Source: Candidatus Paraprochloron terpiosi LD05 (lineage in GTDB: Bacteria; Cyanobacteriota; Cyanobacteriia; Cyanobacteriales; Prochloraceae). From it: a stretch of DNA of 64,000 bases. Made by a program: the position numbers and the translations under genes. Below are positions 1 through 8,271 of the stretch, piece after piece (the first letter of the stretch is position 1; each line of letters opens with the position of its first letter). The notes beneath the pieces are model-generated. The model did not search any database. It saw nothing but the letters and a program-made list of their open reading frames with translations, and had not been told where the DNA came from. The stretch lies in NCBI GenBank assembly GCA_018141785.1, contig CP073341.1:3129422-3193421 (forward strand), given 5' to 3'.

Positions 1-576
1 CAGATGGCTACGAATAACCCCACCAGCATCTGGTGTCAAGGACACGTATTCTCCTCTTGAGAAGACAAACCAATCTAATTCACCATCAAGTACCCGCCAA
101 ACTATGTATTCCGGCACCGCATTGCGGCGATATACTTCTTTTTTATCCCGGAAGTCAATATTAGCTGTGCTGGCTGCGATTTCAACCACAAGTTCTGGAG
201 CACCCTCAATGTAGCCATCAGCACTGAGGCGAGATTGGCCCCCAGATGAGCCATCGATTAGGAGTACAGCATCGGGTTGTGGTTCGTTGTCCAGATCCAG
301 CCGCACGGTGGGATTATCCCCCAGACGAACACCAGGAGTAGCAATTTTGTAAGTGCCTAACCAGATCATTAAGTCTGCGTGGGGTTCAGCATGGGGTTCA
401 AATCGCAACGGTGATGCCATATAGACAATTCTTTCAATTAGTTCTGCTTTTTTGAGGTGGGGCATAGCACTGTAGCGCCGCTCGAACTCGGAACGGGTCA
501 GGAAGTCGCCATTTTCTAGGGGTAGGGGCGCACTGCCGTCCCCCCGTACTTTTTTGGTTCCGGAAATCCCTGTCAT
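1..576 (-). CDS. Uma2 family (DUF820) endonuclease-like protein; 3' end runs off the window
   Basis: A minus-strand ATG at 576..574 opens a frame reading MTGISGTKKVRGDGSAPLPLENGDFLTRSEFERRYSAMPHLKKAELIERIVYMASP... DNA 1..576 is a near-copy of 721..1283. It is missing from the ORF track only because it is open at position 1. Confidence 0.8.
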   Translation of the reverse strand, partial: MTGISGTKKVRGDGSAPLPLENGDFLTRSEFERRYSAMPHLKKAELIERIVYMASPLRFEPHAEPHADLMIWLGTYKIATPGVRLGDNPTVRLDLDNEPQPDAVLLIDGSSGGQSRLSADGYIEGAPELVVEIAASTANIDFRDKKEVYRRNAVPEYIVWRVLDGELDWFVFSRGEYVSLTPDAGGVIRSHL

Positions 577-590
577 AGTTTACTCCTGCA

Positions 591-1283
591 CTATGGATTT
601 TTTCCGCTCAATTGTTGTCGAAAGGCCGCATGTTCAACGTCCGCTAAACCTGTTTGCAGGGTAGCTAAAACTTGGGGCATATCTCCTGCCAAAAGCGCTG
701 AGACATCTAACCAAAGTCCTGTAAACAGATGGCTACGAATAACCCCACCAGCGTCTGGTGTCAAGGACACGTATTCTCCTCTTGAGAAGACAAACCAATC
801 TAATTCACCATCAAGTACCCGCCAAACTATGTATTCTGGCACTGCATTGCGGCGATATACTTCTTTTTTATCCCGGAGGTCAATATTAGCTGTGCTGGCT
901 GCGATTTCAACCACAAGTTCTGGGGCACCCTCAATGTAGCCATCAGCACTGAGGCGAGATTGGCCCCCGGAGGACCCATCGATTAGGAGTACAGCATCGG
1001 GTTGTGGTTCGTTGTCCAGATCCAGCCGCACGGTGGGATTATCCCCCAAACGAACACCAGGAGTAGCAATTTTATAACTCCACAGCCAACCAATGAGATC
1101 GCTGTGGGGTTCAGCATGAGATTCAAATCGCAATGGTGATGCCATATAGACAATTCTTTCAATTAGTTCAGCTTTTTTAAGGTGTGCCATAGCCCTATAG
1201 CGCCGCTCGAACTCGGAACGGGTCAGGAAGTCGCCATTGTCTAGAGGAGGAAGAGTTTTTTTTGTCTGTGAGATCGCTGTCAT
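591..1283 (-). CDS. Uma2 family (DUF820) endonuclease-like protein
   Basis: 230-aa ORF. The core PELVVEIAASTANIDLRDKKEVYRRNAVPEYIVW matches the (P)D..VE(I/V)-S-...K..Y...GV.EYW pattern shared by all six Uma2-like ORFs in the window. Confidence 0.85.
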   Translation of the reverse strand: MTAISQTKKTLPPLDNGDFLTRSEFERRYRAMAHLKKAELIERIVYMASPLRFESHAEPHSDLIGWLWSYKIATPGVRLGDNPTVRLDLDNEPQPDAVLLIDGSSGGQSRLSADGYIEGAPELVVEIAASTANIDLRDKKEVYRRNAVPEYIVWRVLDGELDWFVFSRGEYVSLTPDAGGVIRSHLFTGLWLDVSALLAGDMPQVLATLQTGLADVEHAAFRQQLSGKNP

Positions 1284-1445
1284 ATTTTCCTAAAATAATA
1301 CTATTGTTCAAAACACTTTGTATGCATACAATAAGCTTTAGTATACAGAGGTAACCTAGTAGTCCACCTGGCGTGGACTTCCCTACAAGAGAGCAATTTA
1401 TGAGCGGGCGGGACCCCCGGCATGGATTAATCGCGGGGGCCAGGT

Positions 1446-3461
1446 CTAGCGCCAACCTTTCCAATCTTCGTTAAAAATAGAAGTACCAGGAAAAGCAGTA
1501 GGATTGCGACTTTTATCTATTTGCCGTCGCAGTAGTTGTAATTGGCGGTTTTTGGGGGAGACATCTTCTACTAATTGATAAGGGAAGATACCTTTTTCTA
1601 ATGCAAAAACAGCAGTCATTCCTGCTGCTACACCAGAAGACCATTCAAAAGAATGGACTCGATAAGCAGCGGCGGCAATATGACTGGTGGCAATACTTTT
1701 ACCCGCTACTAACATATTATCGATTTTCTGGGGAATTAATGCTCTGAGGGGGATCTGAAAGGGATAAGCTTGTCCTGCACCCCTGCGCTCTCCTTCTCTT
1801 TCCGTGTTTCTGGGAGTTTCGGGGGGACTCTGGTTCATACAAGGATGAAAATCGATGGCATAGTGACCAATACCCACACTATCAGGATAAATTCTGGAGC
1901 GTGCGCGCCTTTTTACTGCTTCTAATGGAATATCTCCTAACATTACATCAATTGCATCGTTCCCTGCTAACTCTATCCACAAATCCCGATAGGTGGAGGG
2001 GGACAAAGTATTGCTATAGTATTCATCCCGATAGTTTTGGCGGGAAATATCCAGTTCGGTAATGGTAAAACCTTCTGGATAACTGGAGGAAGGTCTGCCA
2101 ATAATGCGCCTTCCTTCTCGAATATAAGGGTATTTGGATAAGCCATGGACTGTCCCCATAGGAGAAGATAAGCCTGAGAGAAAGCGGTAATTGGGGTGGG
2201 GCTGTTTCACTCCCTCTCCTAAGCGGGAGTCGGTTGTTCCGGCGACGAGCCAATAAAAGAATCCCAGGGCATTTTCTTCTCCCCGTCTCAAGGTTTCAGT
2301 ACGTAAGCCCCCTAACCAGCCTCCGGGGGCTAATTGACCGCTAGTTTCTAGTTGTTCTTTCGTATAGACGAGATTATCCTGGGCTGTTCCGGGACGGTAA
2401 TCATTACCCCAAGTCCAGTTTTGCATGGAGATGTCCCCTGAGGTGGGAACTGTAAAACTAATACCACCAAATTTATCCTTGACTCCTGTTTTGGGACTCC
2501 AAATGCGACGATAAGTGAAGACGAGGTCGAAACTGGCTAATCTTTTCAATTCGTAACTATAATAGGGGGCATAATTGGGATAAAAGTCCGGCATTTGGTG
2601 GGTTTGGGGGGTTTTAGTCGCCTCCATAGCAAAGGTATAGGTAAAACCTTGGGTACAATAAGGATCACCTGTTTCGCTGGAGGAGGAGGGTTCCACAGGG
2701 GAACGGGGATCAACTCCCAAGCGGTAGGGAACGTCAGCGAGAGCAATTATTTCTCCTGTTTCTGTAGCATCGATGATATACTTTGGTGTAAAGCTGATGA
2801 TGGTTTTCTCGAATTCTGTTGAATCTTCATAGCGATACCAATCTTCTATATGTTGGGAGAGGGTTTGGGTTTGCTTCCCATCTTTTGGTTGGTGTTCAAT
2901 GGCGATCGCAGTGGTAATTTGTTTACCAGTAGAGTCGGTTTCCAATTCTTTGATAACGGTGTTGGGATACCATTTGAGGGTACCTTTACCCTGTTTTGCA
3001 GCCGTCAACAACTGCTGGAATAATATTTGGTGGGCGTCTCGGGGGAGAAAACAGGATACACTCACCCAACAATCCCCAGGATTGAGTTTACCGTAGTATT
3101 TGGCAATGCGATCCCGCAGTTCCAAATATCCTCGGGGATAGAAGAGCCGTTCCCGCTGGGTAGGTCGTTCGTCTAGGGCTGAGGTTCCTTGGGAGGATAT
3201 TTGTCCTCCTACCCAGTCGGTGATTTCCGTCATACAGACGGTTTTGCCTGCTAGTAAGGCTTCATAGGCAGAAGCGGAGCCGGCTAGTCCCCCTCCTACT
3301 ACGAGGATATCACAAGTTTCGGTTTTGTCTGGGGTTCTGGGAGGTGCTGCTAGGGTAGGAGGAGATAAAGTTTGGCAGAAGACGAGACTAAGGGGTAGGG
3401 AAAGGAAAGAAAAGAGGGAGCGGTTAGTTACGTTTTTTAATGGAAATGGCCAATATTTCAT
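1446..3461 (-). CDS. Secreted or periplasmic FAD-dependent oxidoreductase
   Basis: A hydrophobic N-terminal signal-like stretch is followed by DILVVGGGLAGSASAYEALLAGKTVCMTE (GxGxxG dinucleotide-binding motif). Uninterrupted 671-aa ORF. Confidence 0.7.
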   Translation of the reverse strand: MKYWPFPLKNVTNRSLFSFLSLPLSLVFCQTLSPPTLAAPPRTPDKTETCDILVVGGGLAGSASAYEALLAGKTVCMTEITDWVGGQISSQGTSALDERPTQRERLFYPRGYLELRDRIAKYYGKLNPGDCWVSVSCFLPRDAHQILFQQLLTAAKQGKGTLKWYPNTVIKELETDSTGKQITTAIAIEHQPKDGKQTQTLSQHIEDWYRYEDSTEFEKTIISFTPKYIIDATETGEIIALADVPYRLGVDPRSPVEPSSSSETGDPYCTQGFTYTFAMEATKTPQTHQMPDFYPNYAPYYSYELKRLASFDLVFTYRRIWSPKTGVKDKFGGISFTVPTSGDISMQNWTWGNDYRPGTAQDNLVYTKEQLETSGQLAPGGWLGGLRTETLRRGEENALGFFYWLVAGTTDSRLGEGVKQPHPNYRFLSGLSSPMGTVHGLSKYPYIREGRRIIGRPSSSYPEGFTITELDISRQNYRDEYYSNTLSPSTYRDLWIELAGNDAIDVMLGDIPLEAVKRRARSRIYPDSVGIGHYAIDFHPCMNQSPPETPRNTEREGERRGAGQAYPFQIPLRALIPQKIDNMLVAGKSIATSHIAAAAYRVHSFEWSSGVAAGMTAVFALEKGIFPYQLVEDVSPKNRQLQLLRRQIDKSRNPTAFPGTSIFNEDWKGWR

Positions 3462-3696: not shown

Positions 3697-4023
3697 TTTA
3701 AGGATTTTTATGTAGATCTAGGTGCCAGTAACCTGCTGGCAGCAGAAAAAGAAGCCCGTAAGATTGCAGTGGAAATTAAAAGTTTTACAGGTCGTTCAGA
3801 TATTAATGATTTAGAAAAAGCATTGGGACAATATATATTGTATCATGATATTTTGACAGAAGTAGAGCCATCACGGGAGCTATTTTTAGCTGTTCCTAAT
3901 ACTGTAGCTGAGGATTTATTTGAAGAACCGGTGGGTAAGCTACTGCTTAAAAAACGTCGGTTAAAGCTTATTTCTTTCGCTCCACAACAGGAGGTAATTA
4001 AGCAATGGATCTTGCCAAATTAG
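3697..4023 (+). pseudogene. xisH: xisH-like remnant, N-terminal third missing
   Basis: The frame from 3697 (FKDFYVDLGASNLLAAEKEARKIAVEIKSFTGRS...) parallels the middle and C-terminus of the xisH-like ORF at 47170 (FFIDLGAERIIAAQKDGKKIAVEIKSFLGRS...). There is an in-frame TAA at 3694..3696 and no recognisable N-terminus upstream. Confidence 0.6.
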
Positions 4024-4603: not shown

Positions 4604-5332
4604 TTAGTCTACATTGGCATCCTTTATTGAGGGATTACTTACCGCTTTAATAAATGCCTCACCAACGATAGTCAGCTTCCAGTAACTTGCTGGCTTTTTC
4701 TCACGTTCACCTGATCTGTTCTCAGTTTCAACCATTGGACGCTCAATAAGTCCTAGGTTAGATAGATGCACATTGGTAAAGTCTGTAGGTTCTTCGATAA
4801 TATCTTTAAATTTAATTTCAAATCCAAATACCTTAAAACTTAAAGTCACCTTTTTAGGAGGATCAGATCGTTGTGCTAAGTCGATAAGTCGATATGCATC
4901 TGTAGAACTTAGTCTGGATAAAATATGAATAAACTCTGGATGAATAGAGCTATCCGCTAATTCGTTAGCAAGTAAGTTACTCCAAAGCTCTTGTAATGTT
5001 TCATCAGTTTCAGTAGACGAAGATTCAATGACTTTGAGCATTATAGATGCCCTTGGCATTCTAGTTGAGTCATATCTACTGTTTGAGGCTTTTTCGGCAG
5101 CACTTTTTAGTATTTGAGCAGCAAGCCATTTTTCGGCATCAACGAATCTGTCAAACTTGGCATTAATAAGCCTACCAATACCACCTGTAGTAGATGTTAT
5201 TGGTGCTAGTAATTCTTTGAAAGTGTAGCAGACAGTATTAACAATTTGATTCCATGAATCATCGGGAATAGCTTCCGCAAGTTTTCCAACACCCGCTAGA
5301 TCAAGACTACGATCTTCAGTCATATATAGCAA
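4604..5332 (-). CDS. Abi-alpha / DUF4393-like protein (tentative)
   Basis: The central segment ETLQELWSNLLANELADSSIHPEFIHILSRLSSTDAYRLIDLA resembles the conserved core I recall for DUF4393/Abi-alpha proteins. This assignment is from memory only. Confidence 0.45.
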   Translation of the reverse strand: MLYMTEDRSLDLAGVGKLAEAIPDDSWNQIVNTVCYTFKELLAPITSTTGGIGRLINAKFDRFVDAEKWLAAQILKSAAEKASNSRYDSTRMPRASIMLKVIESSSTETDETLQELWSNLLANELADSSIHPEFIHILSRLSSTDAYRLIDLAQRSDPPKKVTLSFKVFGFEIKFKDIIEEPTDFTNVHLSNLGLIERPMVETENRSGEREKKPASYWKLTIVGEAFIKAVSNPSIKDANVD

Positions 5333-5886: not shown

Positions 5887-6079
5887 GTTAAAATTAAAGA
5901 AAAAATTAATTAGTGAGAGAGGGAAGTGAGTTTTCTGAATTTAGAACATTATTGCTTCCCACTCCCAATGGGTTGACAAAAATTGGTGACAATTTATCAA
6001 AAACAAGCTTGAAAACAATTGTTATCTAAAGTTATTGTATATTGCCGCTGTTTTGAGAAAAAGTAGTCAAGATAAATTC

Positions 6080-6403
6080 ATGCCAAGTACTGCCCTCCCT
6101 ACTCGTTCTGCTTTAATTATTACTGGGTTTCACGCTCTCTCGGCTCCCCGGCGATTGCGGGTACTGGAATTACTCCAGGAACGGGAACTCTGTGTCTGTG
6201 ATTTGTGCGCTGCTCTGAATATTTCTCAGTCGAAACTATCCTTTCACCTCAAAACCCTGAAAGAAGCTGCTTTAGTTAATCCTCGTCAAGAAGGGCGTTG
6301 GGTTTACTATAGTCTTAATGTACCTCAATTTGCTGTCTTGGAGGAGTATCTTGCAGCTTATAGTAAGGCGATGGCCTTACCTGCTCGTCTCTGCCAAGAC
6401 TAA
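6080..6403 (+). CDS. ArsR/SmtB family metal-responsive transcriptional regulator
   Basis: ELCVCDLCAALNISQSKLSFHLKTLKEAALVNPRQEGRWVYYSLN is a winged HTH with the CVC metal-site motif. The first in-frame ATG is at 6080; the track start at 6035 is TTG. Confidence 0.8.
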   Translation: MPSTALPTRSALIITGFHALSAPRRLRVLELLQERELCVCDLCAALNISQSKLSFHLKTLKEAALVNPRQEGRWVYYSLNVPQFAVLEEYLAAYSKAMALPARLCQD

Positions 6404-6457: not shown

Positions 6458-7102
6458 ATGATAATTGGAACACGAGAACCAAAAGCGGAGTTACAGTTCG
6501 GGGAGCAACGGGTGGTGCTGAGGGGTATCTCCTGGAAAGCCTACCTACAAATTTTCGATGCACTCCCACAATCCCGTGGTTCTCGTCTCACTTACGATGA
6601 TGGAATATTAGAAATTACTGTGCCTTTAGAAGATCATGAGTTTTTCTGTCGTTTAATTGAACGTTTTATTTTCACTTTAGTTGAACTTATGGGAATGAGG
6701 CTAAAAACCATGGGTTCAACAACCATGAACTATCCTCAGCTCAAGAAAAGCGCAGAACCTGATAACGCTTATTATATCCAAAATCAACCCCTAGTGAAAG
6801 GTCGGAATGTGGATTTTAGCCAAGATCCGCCTCCTGATTTGGTGGTTGAGGTGGACATTACCCATACTGATATTGCCAAAAACGAGTTTTACGCCAGCCT
6901 GGGAGTACCAGAGTTTTGGCGGTTTGATGGCAAGGTATGGCGGATTTACCAACTTGAAGACGGGGTTTATAGGTCAGTTGAGGTGAGCAATACATTTTCC
7001 CAAGTGCCCAAAGAGCTGCTGTATAGGTTTCTGGAGCAAGCAAAAGAGGATGAAATTGCTGCGGTGCAGTCATTACGGGCTTGGTGGATAGAGCAACAAT
7101 GA
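6458..7102 (+). CDS. Uma2 family (DUF820) endonuclease-like protein
   Basis: Contains PDLVVEVDITHTDIAKNEFYASLGVPEFWRFD, the Uma2 core motif. Confidence 0.85.
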   Translation: MIIGTREPKAELQFGEQRVVLRGISWKAYLQIFDALPQSRGSRLTYDDGILEITVPLEDHEFFCRLIERFIFTLVELMGMRLKTMGSTTMNYPQLKKSAEPDNAYYIQNQPLVKGRNVDFSQDPPPDLVVEVDITHTDIAKNEFYASLGVPEFWRFDGKVWRIYQLEDGVYRSVEVSNTFSQVPKELLYRFLEQAKEDEIAAVQSLRAWWIEQQ

Positions 7103-7139
7103 ACAATTTGGCGCCGTAAAGATAAGCTATAATGAGGAT

Positions 7140-7966
7140 GTGCGGCTCGAAAGTCGCAGTAGTTAGTGGGTGAAAGCCCCATGGGGAGTGTCTTCCCCGG
7201 TTCCAGCCCGAAGGAGCTTTGGCAGTAATGCCGGAGTTTCACAGCTAGAGGGTTAAATGGCCAAGCTACTATCAGTCCGATGGTGGTAGCGGCCTAGGGA
7301 AAGTCTGATATGGTGAGCATAAAGCGAAGCTTGCAGCCTCGTTACGTAGGAAGAGTGAAAGCGGTACTGTTACACTCTAACCAAAACGGTATGCGGCATA
7401 TGTGAAAGATGGAATGTCATCGTCATCGCGTAGACACCACGCCGCCGGGGTATGGAGCAGCCCGCCGTCAGACGTATCTAACTACTGTGGAACGAGTAAA
7501 CCTCCACTGGGTCTGAGAAATCAGTAGGATAGCTGTAAAGCGAACCAATTCCCAGGGGAGACAGGACTCTCCTAAGAAGCGAACGCTGCTAGGACGAAAG
7601 TTCAGGGGAATCAATAACCCGGCAGATAGGCAAATGTCTACCCCCGCCATCCGCGATGCCGGGGGGAGCTGACGTAGGAGAGGGTGAAACGTAACGGTAA
7701 AATCCCTTACCACTTGCGATTTTGCCTGTCCATTAGCTGGAACTTGAAACTCAAAGCTCCTCAGAAGTTAGAGGCGTCGGGCAAACGTCAATGGCGAGGA
7801 GATTGGAATTTAAGGACTCAAAGCCCAATCTGAATGAGACCTGAAAGCCGATACAAGTAATGAGGAGTAAACGCGCCAGCGAGTAGGATGATACACCAGG
7901 AGCCGGGTGCTTGGAAACCTGCACGCCCGGTACTGCGAGGGGGAAAACCTGTAAGGGTCTACCTAT
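7140..7966 (+). mobile_element. ORF-less group II intron-like element (3' boundary approximate)
   Basis: Begins GTGCGGCTCG, identical to the first 10 nt of the ORF-containing intron at 63582. Contains GGTGAAAGCC-type D1-like motifs. A domain-V-like hairpin GAGCCGGGTGCTTGGAAACCTGCACGCCCGGTAC lies at 7900..7933, about 33 nt before the proposed end. The track shows no + strand ORF between 7103 and 7887. Confidence 0.55.
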
Positions 7967-7977
7967 CTCGACATTAT

Positions 7978-8271
7978 ATGAACAAGTCTGAAGAATGGGA
8001 ATTAAAACTGCACCCTCGTCAATCAGAAACAATATCTTTAGAGATCCCCAAAGATACCAGAGAATCTCTGAAAAAAGTAGCTAATAGTCGCGATATGTCT
8101 TTTAAAGCATTACTCAAATTTTATCTTGGTCAAGGTTGGCGACAATACTTAGCTCAATTATTTTACCATCGGGTTAGGTTAGCAACTGAAAAAGTTCTAG
8201 CTAACCCGATCCAGTCAGAAGAAGAAATATCTAACATTATGACAGAAATATGCTCAGAAATAAATTTTTAG
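7978..8271 (+). CDS. Small hypothetical protein, possibly RHH/antitoxin-like
   Basis: The ATG at 7978 lies just after the intron-like element; the track start at 7888 falls inside domain V and is unlikely. ISLEIPKDTRESLKKVANSRDMSFKALLKFYLGQG resembles CopG/BrnA-type antitoxin cores, but weakly. Confidence 0.4.
   Translation: MNKSEEWELKLHPRQSETISLEIPKDTRESLKKVANSRDMSFKALLKFYLGQGWRQYLAQLFYHRVRLATEKVLANPIQSEEEISNIMTEICSEINF

Follow-up and report, generated by a model that had tools for sequence, protein, structure and literature searches.

A group II intron without an open reading frame, recently inserted just ahead of a small gene in Candidatus Paraprochloron terpiosi LD05

Introduction

Mobile group II introns, among them copies that lack an open reading frame (ORF), are known from the cyanobacteria Thermosynechococcus, Trichodesmium and Arthrospira. 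ORF-less introns of the TeI3 type in Thermosynechococcus elongatus are spliced and mobilised by driver intron-encoded proteins (IEPs; Mohr, Ghanem & Lambowitz 2010, PMC2882425). In Trichodesmium erythraeum, where twintrons have also been studied (PMC4649490), ORF-less introns in dnaN are spliced by an RIR-intron maturase (summarised in PMC12584367), and 101 group II introns have been counted in Arthrospira platensis (Miura et al. 2022, PMC8919778). Here we characterise an element of this kind at 7140..7972 (plus strand) of a 64,000-nucleotide (nt) stretch of Candidatus Paraprochloron terpiosi LD05 (assembly GCA_018141785.1, contig CP073341.1, positions 3,129,422 to 3,193,421), the whole of which is referred to below as the window. 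The original prediction, made from the letters of the window, had placed a group II intron without an ORF directly ahead of a small gene. This core reading is upheld: the ORF-less intron is genuine, its structure is intact, and it was inserted recently.

The element joins these described mobile introns, and its closest counterpart is TeI3. Both are cyanobacterial, ORF-less, of IIB type, about 0.8 kb long and present in many copies (PMC2882425); both form sub-families that differ in their exon-binding sites (EBS), with most copies at sites with 0-1 mismatches and mainly outside genes; both occur as twintrons within IEP genes; and TeI3 depends on IEPs acting in trans, as our element would. The two differ in origin, in that TeI3 introns are clear deletion derivatives of the resident TeI4 and keep remnants of its ORF, whereas our element has no such remnants and no resident ORF-bearing parent was found when the window's own full-length intron was compared. 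The present family also has a fixed A·A mismatch in domain V, its host is a mesophilic symbiont, and its lineage is ORF-less in several genera (Prochloron, Waterburya and four metagenome contigs).

The likeness to the dnaN introns of Trichodesmium is that ORF-less introns there need an IEP from another intron for splicing, and hence for expression of the host gene. Those introns interrupt an essential coding sequence and are structurally related to the intron of their helper, whereas the present intron is in a 5' leader and stops 5 nt short of the start codon of a gene that looks dispensable. Arthrospira offers a comparable copy number, from tens to about a hundred, and another case of CL-type and ORF-less expansions in Cyanobacteriota; the difference is that natural populations here include filled as well as empty alleles of a single site. 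Our literature search found no paper on group II introns in Prochloron, which now joins the intron-rich cyanobacteria; taken singly, the element is an ordinary mobile-intron copy, and a fairly ordinary one for such genomes.

Results

The element is 833 nt long and begins with GUGCG (7140..7144), in agreement with the GUGYG 5' end of group II introns. Its first 10 nt, from 7140, are GTGCGGCTCG, the 10-mer that the original prediction had placed there, and the same GUGCG start is found in all 10 aligned copies of the family. At the other end it reads ...CUCGAC, with the AY-type terminus ...GAC closing at base 7972; this position follows from the Rfam alignment, from the sister copies, every one of which ends ...CGAC, and from alleles that lack the element, and it moves the predicted 3' end (7966) six bases downstream. 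The predicted GC-richer and ORF-free character was confirmed: GC content is 52.4% against 43.9% for the window, no internal ORF exceeds 81 amino acids (the longest lies on the opposite strand), and the ORF listed at 7888..8271 is merely an upstream extension of the true small gene. A tblastn search with 58 IEPs found no IEP remnant in the element with E < 0.07. The family profile matches over the full length, and unitigs break at 7166/7168 and 7946/7973. The flanking contigs end 27-29 nt inside each end of the element, as a repeat boundary would lead one to expect.

Direct evidence for insertion comes from close relatives in which the site is empty (comparison loci are given L numbers, public sequencing runs X numbers). 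In L107, a locus on a 4.7-Mb Prochloron contig that was found through a 98%-identical homologue of the small protein, GCTATAATGAGGAT is followed directly by ATTATATG, and over a longer stretch by ATTATATGAACAAG, which is the window minus 7140..7972. A 42-nt spacer separates the Uma2-family gene from the small gene in this locus, and its flanks are 92-97% identical to those of the window. Contigs of X13, X14 and X19 likewise join 7139 straight to 7973, with 0-4 flank mismatches. The kind of run is given as 'DNA?' for X13 and '?' for X14 and X19, none being confirmed as RNA, and we read these joints as intron-free DNA alleles rather than spliced RNA, because they occur at flank-level depth and no filled junction is present in the same runs. 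Filled junctions were present in seven runs (X1, X2, X3, X5, X6, X7 and X11), against the three empty runs and L107. The element is thus a presence/absence polymorphism with clean ends among close relatives, as expected of a mobile retroelement. Filled and empty alleles with identical flanks both occur in natural Prochloron populations; this dates the insertion as recent and offers a clean comparison of one site before and after the arrival of a non-autonomous intron.

The fold was derived with RNAalifold from an alignment of six copies that are 68-80% identical. The consensus contains 201 pairs; 92.5% of paired cells can form, compared with 36-44% when the partners are slid by 1-3 columns, and 73 pairs have changed on both sides, compared with 10-17 after sliding. 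None of 500 shuffles reached the observed values. No more than 3 of the 201 consensus pairs are broken in the window copy, the least of all copies. The resulting co-varying fold comprises a closed domain I, several central domains that we treat as one block, domain V and domain VI. Domain I (7145..7497, plus strand) is closed by the helices 7145-7149/7493-7497 and 7154-7166/7478-7490, both with compensatory changes. The central block (domains II-IV; 7498..7896, plus strand), which includes a segment of variable presence at 7695..7737, contains covariation-supported helices at 7567-7574/7675-7682, 7751-7762/7796-7806 and 7813-7820/7835-7842. Three further candidates were set aside: a 5'-terminal hairpin (intron nt 3-18) was replaced by the long-range, co-varying helices that close domain I; a GUGCG/CGCGC helix (7140-7144/7872-7876) returned by RNAalifold shows no compensatory change and was not trusted; and a GAAA-receptor-like CCUAGG...UAUGG (7293-7313) clashes with supported helices and is not claimed.

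The 3' part of the fold was recognised by the Rfam model for domains V and VI (RF00029, Intron_gpII), a check that the original prediction had proposed: it matches 7898..7972 on the plus strand, reaching 50.1 bits (gathering score 40), with E = 7.4e-07 over the entire window. Its sole other match in the window is the full-length intron (61059..61137, minus strand, 59.9 bits). Domain V (7900..7933, plus strand) is a 34-nt hairpin with an AGC triad (7901-7903), a 2-nt bulge and a GAAA loop of the GNRA type. As predicted to the letter, it has one A·A (A7901·A7932) and two upper-stem mismatches, U·U and U·C; position 7919 is C in the window copy and U in most sister copies. Domain VI (7937..7969, plus strand), placed by the Rfam alignment, has two helices, both with compensatory changes (A-U/U-A, C-G/U-A), and a bulged A7965 as the candidate branch point, 7 nt before the 3' splice site, within the usual 7-8 nt.

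The mismatches had been taken as a sign of decay, and two comparisons speak against that. A scan for the domain V core AGCCGNNUGCUUGGAAACYUGCACGNNCGGU, with one genome per species, returned at least 100 loci in Planctomycetota, Alphaproteobacteria, cyanobacteria and other groups. Among the matches listed, the two free pairs were complementary in 99 of 100 (GA/UC, AG/CU, GG/CC, UA/UA, UG/CA), and an open frame of at least 300 amino acids lay upstream of domain V in 58 of 100, in most cases stopping 12-40 nt before it, as expected of an IEP gene. The tandem U·U/U·C is therefore a conserved trait of a large intron class, many of whose members carry an IEP-sized ORF, rather than decay, because it is spread over several phyla and the neighbouring pairs are compensatory. 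The A·A is a narrower matter. In the remaining loci of the scan, among the matches listed, a U stands opposite the first triad base, giving an A-U pair, and the A·A is found without exception in the 14 members seen of one ORF-less lineage (the copy in the window, those in four loci of Prochloron sp. OZ240666.1, one from Waterburya and four metagenome copies). With U·U/U·C class-wide, A·A lineage-wide and 3 of 201 consensus pairs broken, the suspicion of a decaying domain V falls. A family that spreads despite an A·A at the triad base is a natural test of how important that pair is.

The element also contains sequences that match its flanks, and these co-vary with the flanks of other copies. 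EBS1, GUCAUC (7416..7421, plus strand), lies in the loop of a hairpin (7408-7412/7423-7427) whose stem co-varies as well. It pairs at five of six positions with its intron-binding site (IBS1), GAGGAU (7134..7139, plus strand), A7419 facing G7136, so that the EBS1/IBS1 pairing which the original prediction had named as a check was found. In nine other copies the bases in this alignment column can pair with the final five or six bases of that copy's own exon: all six positions pair in L008, L078A, L078B, L078C, L007, L110, L109 and L111, and five in L108. The pairs are as diverse as CUAUCU/AGAUAG, UUCCUU/AAGGGA, AGAUAC/GUAUCU, UAGGCA/UGCCUA, CUACAC/GUGUAG, ACAGUA/UACUGU and GUGUUU/AAACAC. EBS2, GUUA (7341..7344, plus strand), sits upstream of EBS1 in the loop GUUACGU (7341..7347) and forms 4 bp, one of them G·U, with IBS2, UAAU (7130..7133, plus strand; exon positions -10..-7). 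This loop too varies between copies, each matching its own exon at -13..-8, with 5 bp in L008, L078B, L078C and L110; the EBS2-IBS2 pairs were read by hand from the alignments. Downstream of EBS1, U7453 (plus strand) is EBS3 and pairs with A7973 (IBS3, plus strand), the first base of the 3' exon. The EBS3 column co-varies with exon position +1 in six of six copies, G·U allowed, and in nine of ten once metagenome copies are added; such an EBS3-IBS3 pair is typical of subgroup IIB, to which the element belongs. Another column, at intron nt 79, co-varies in six of six copies as well, and U7453 was preferred as EBS3 since that position is paired within the stem 7213-7224/7229-7240. The hexamer GAGGAT is also present in the empty allele L107; the EBS1 mismatch was therefore already there at insertion, and the site is near-cognate.

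The window copy is one of many. Copy numbers were estimated from Logan unitig depths alone. Summed over 7140..7972, unitig depth far exceeds that of the flanks in every run (in X2, about 70,000-380,000 against 1,660); for the family as a whole the sum is roughly 30-160 times flank depth, which does not amount to a count of copies. The unitigs that match the window copy exactly reach 12-18 times flank depth; over 7366..7462, which includes EBS1, the depth in X3 is 381.7 against 25.8, and X6 and X7 give similar ratios. These depths suggest some 12-18 near-identical copies and tens or more of related ones. Sister copies with unrelated flanks were found at other sites. Searching metagenome contigs with the A·A-type domain V pattern gave the four further ORF-less members mentioned above; the exact EBS1-region pattern had no match in metagenome contigs, and blastn of the element against the plasmid collection gave none.

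Family members vary in structure. Many sister copies carry TCCGAAAG(T/A) in place of the 43 nt at 7695..7737 of the window copy, and the joint from 7694 to 7738 was seen in X1, X2, X3, X6, X7 and X12, so the length of domain IV varies within the family; one sister copy (L008, 1290..1590) has about 260 nt of tandem repeats in this region, with repeat units of about 46 and about 24 nt. A joint from 7974 to 7140 in contigs of X1, X2, X3 and X6 shows two family copies head to tail, 38 nt apart (ATAAGCGAGAAACAGCAAGGAGAAGATGTTATCATGGC), elsewhere in the genome. The intron copies of L059 (3086..3116) and L078 contain inserted palindromes that are GC-rich and 25-30 nt long (CCTGCTCAGGCGCGGC.GCGCAGGAGCAGG); these recur in several loose ends of X runs near 7643; one lies within domain V of the inner intron of L059, and the window copy is without them. 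Nesting is also seen: in L078 a copy (minus strand, 421..1340) lies within a copy of its own family (36..1984), and the L059 copy hosts an ORF-bearing intron (about 706..3190).

The window contains one other group II intron, a full-length one at 61057..63582 (minus strand) with a standard domain V and an intact 592-amino-acid IEP (61144..62922). This protein has the Pfam domains RVT_N, RVT_1 and GIIM and a C-terminal HNH-like CxxC...HH motif. The original prediction had joined the two introns by the 10-mer with which both begin and had named this IEP as the maturase in trans. The shared start is true; as a match it is not significant by itself (blastn E = 3.1). The element shows no nucleotide similarity to 61057..63582 beyond 10-32-nt chance matches (blastn). 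Its family profile instead matches domains I-III of ORF-bearing introns from Chlorogloea (L098), Geminocystis (L026, L053) and uncultured cyanobacteria (L035, L009). The IEPs of these five relatives are 31-34% identical to the window IEP and 38-44% identical to the IEP of the Prochloron twintron L059. The L098 protein, the sole one of the five searched against PDB, matches the TeI4h maturase of Thermosynechococcus (PDB 6ME0) over its full length with 402.6 bits, a further likeness to the TeI3 system; the window IEP scores 260 bits against the same chain. TeI4h itself is a CL/IIB1 intron (PMC2882425), which is an indirect pointer to that lineage for the element. A trans-acting maturase would indeed be needed, and naming that of 61144..62922 was a guess, because there is no nucleotide similarity and the IEP identity to the relatives is only 31-34%. 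A single hint speaks for it: sister copies turn up repeatedly within window-type introns (L059, L073, L078A and a loose end in X12). These twintrons were located at 3718..4549 of L078 (minus strand), 2..707 of L073 and 400..3707 of L059; the copies sit in frame in the RT0-coding region (…QLN.G/.K.PGVDG…, the slash marking the insertion) or the N-terminal region of window-type IEP genes.

The host site lies between a Uma2-family gene (6458..7102, plus strand; Pfam PF05685, 71.8 bits; putative restriction endonuclease fold) and the small gene (7978..8271, plus strand), which encodes a 97-amino-acid, BrnA/CopG-like ribbon-helix-helix protein of antitoxin type (Pfam PF12441, 25.6 bits, just below the cut-off of 28). 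Homologues of this protein, 62-82% identical, directly follow and overlap a BrnT toxin gene, whereas the gene here is an orphan without brnT that has kept only about 14 nt of its old upstream sequence. The TATAAT at 7128..7133 and the ATG at 7978 are both as predicted. A sigma-70 scan found no -35 partner for this TATAAT and no terminator-like site was found between Uma2 and the intron on the plus strand, which makes read-through from Uma2 the likely source of a transcript with the 5' exon. A coding sequence spanning the intron was considered and rejected, as an in-frame TGA (7133..7135) precedes the ATG in the ligated exons; the intron is therefore in the leader and not in the coding sequence.

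IBS1 contains the Shine-Dalgarno-like GAGGA of the small gene. In the intron-free L107 it stands 6 nt before the ATG, which corrects the roughly 13 nt expected for spliced RNA by the original prediction. GAGGA is a plausible ribosome-binding site of the small gene. In unspliced RNA the intron's ...CUCGAC takes its place ahead of the ATG, and splicing is therefore probably needed for the small gene to be translated. Such an intron, between GAGGA and a start codon, would provide a simple read-out of splicing in vivo, with protein made only from spliced RNA. Our literature search returned nothing specific on group II introns that part a Shine-Dalgarno sequence from its start codon. A c-di-GMP-dependent group I ribozyme of Clostridioides difficile reportedly offers a parallel, in that it is a self-splicing intron in a 5' leader whose splicing brings the ribosome-binding site beside the start codon, at the right distance. 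That ribozyme is said to differ in being a group I intron and an allosteric riboswitch with an evolved regulatory role, whereas the arrangement at the present site is most simply seen as an accident of where a mobile intron landed.

Discussion

We consider it quite likely that the element is a non-autonomous IIB intron from a multi-copy, recently mobile family of the Prochloron lineage, inserted by reverse splicing and spliced with the help of an IEP acting in trans. This reading is carried by its ends, its precise absence from the same site elsewhere, a co-varying fold with domain V and a bulged-A domain VI, and EBS1, EBS2 and EBS3 that match the flanks; the rest, namely in vivo splicing, the helper's identity and the consequences for translation, we infer. 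The intron would have entered the 42-nt spacer between Uma2 and the brnA-like gene by reverse splicing, at a near-cognate site with one EBS1-IBS1 mismatch, and would be transcribed within Uma2 read-through RNA. Splicing would be aided by the reverse transcriptase/maturase of some ORF-bearing intron elsewhere in the genome, with branching at A7965 releasing a lariat and joining GAGGAU to AUUAUAUG. The joining of the exons would bring the Shine-Dalgarno-like GAGGA back to its place, 6 nt ahead of the ATG, and translation of the small gene would probably be tied to splicing.

Several observations weigh against this reading. The Rfam models for domains I-IV stay below threshold, the best being RF02003 with 15.9 bits, and the A·A opposite the first triad base may affect catalysis. 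No helper IEP of the element's own lineage was found in the sequences searched, no RNA run with the locus is listed among public runs, and GAGGA is not conserved before brnA in distant brnTA operons. The window copy also has an internal A·G in EBS1-IBS1 and only 4 bp of EBS2-IBS2, against perfect pairing in sister copies. Splicing requires EBS/IBS pairing (PMC2882425), and with weaker pairing here it may therefore be inefficient at this site.

The last point is what a genuine and recent insertion that proved a dead end would look like, one at a mismatched ectopic target with little or no splicing, where the orphan brnA-like gene is cut off from the signals upstream of it and either falls silent or is translated with no Shine-Dalgarno sequence. 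Mohr et al. (PMC2882425) expect good splicing only for copies at well-matched sites, and the host gene, an orphan antitoxin without its toxin, may be lost at no cost. Against this, "one or no mismatches" is the normal retrohoming range in the same work, EBS3-IBS3 and the entire fold are intact, and the small protein is still 98% identical between filled and empty genomes. We therefore regard such a dead end as unlikely.

A much smaller chance is left to the model of the original prediction, in which the element is a deletion derivative of 61057..63582 serviced by the maturase of that intron. It accounts for GTGCGGCTCG at the start of both introns, for the intactness of the window IEP, and for sister copies nested in introns of this type, which resemble the TeI3-in-TeI4 twintrons, in which the inner intron relies on the outer IEP for splicing. 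We rejected derivation from 61057..63582 all the same, since blastn yields just chance matches, the element lacks the IEP remnants that a TeI3-like deletion derivative should show, and its domains I-III are homologous to those of another lineage with IEPs distant from that of the window; the 61144..62922 maturase may help across lineages. That the element is no intron and instead some other structured RNA, or a repeat with a chance domain V-like hairpin, is hardly credible, the sub-threshold domain I-IV models being opposed by a domain V/VI match above the gathering score, a GUGCG 5' and an AC 3' end, EBS-IBS co-variation in 10 copies, homology of domains I-III to IEP-carrying introns and the precise presence/absence polymorphism.

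Returning to the non-autonomous, mobile intron that we favour, a bolder version of it seems doubtful as a whole and is offered tentatively. The A·A domain V may mark a long-lived, exclusively ORF-less IIB lineage that extends across cyanobacterial genera, is still transposing in Prochloron and is driven by an IEP of an unrelated lineage, possibly one of the window-type introns that it so often enters, and that at this site ties the translation of an orphan antitoxin to splicing by parting the Shine-Dalgarno sequence from the AUG.

The surroundings of the site resemble a defence or mobile-element island. Neighbours of the empty site in L107, called there as Abi_alpha and a helix-turn-helix regulator of ArsR type, correspond to 4604..5332 (minus strand) and 6035..6403 (plus strand) of the window. 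A paralogue of the small gene (82% protein identity) with an intact overlapping brnT and no intron was seen in L101/L102, from the Logan-assembled runs SRR18788998 and DRR530893.

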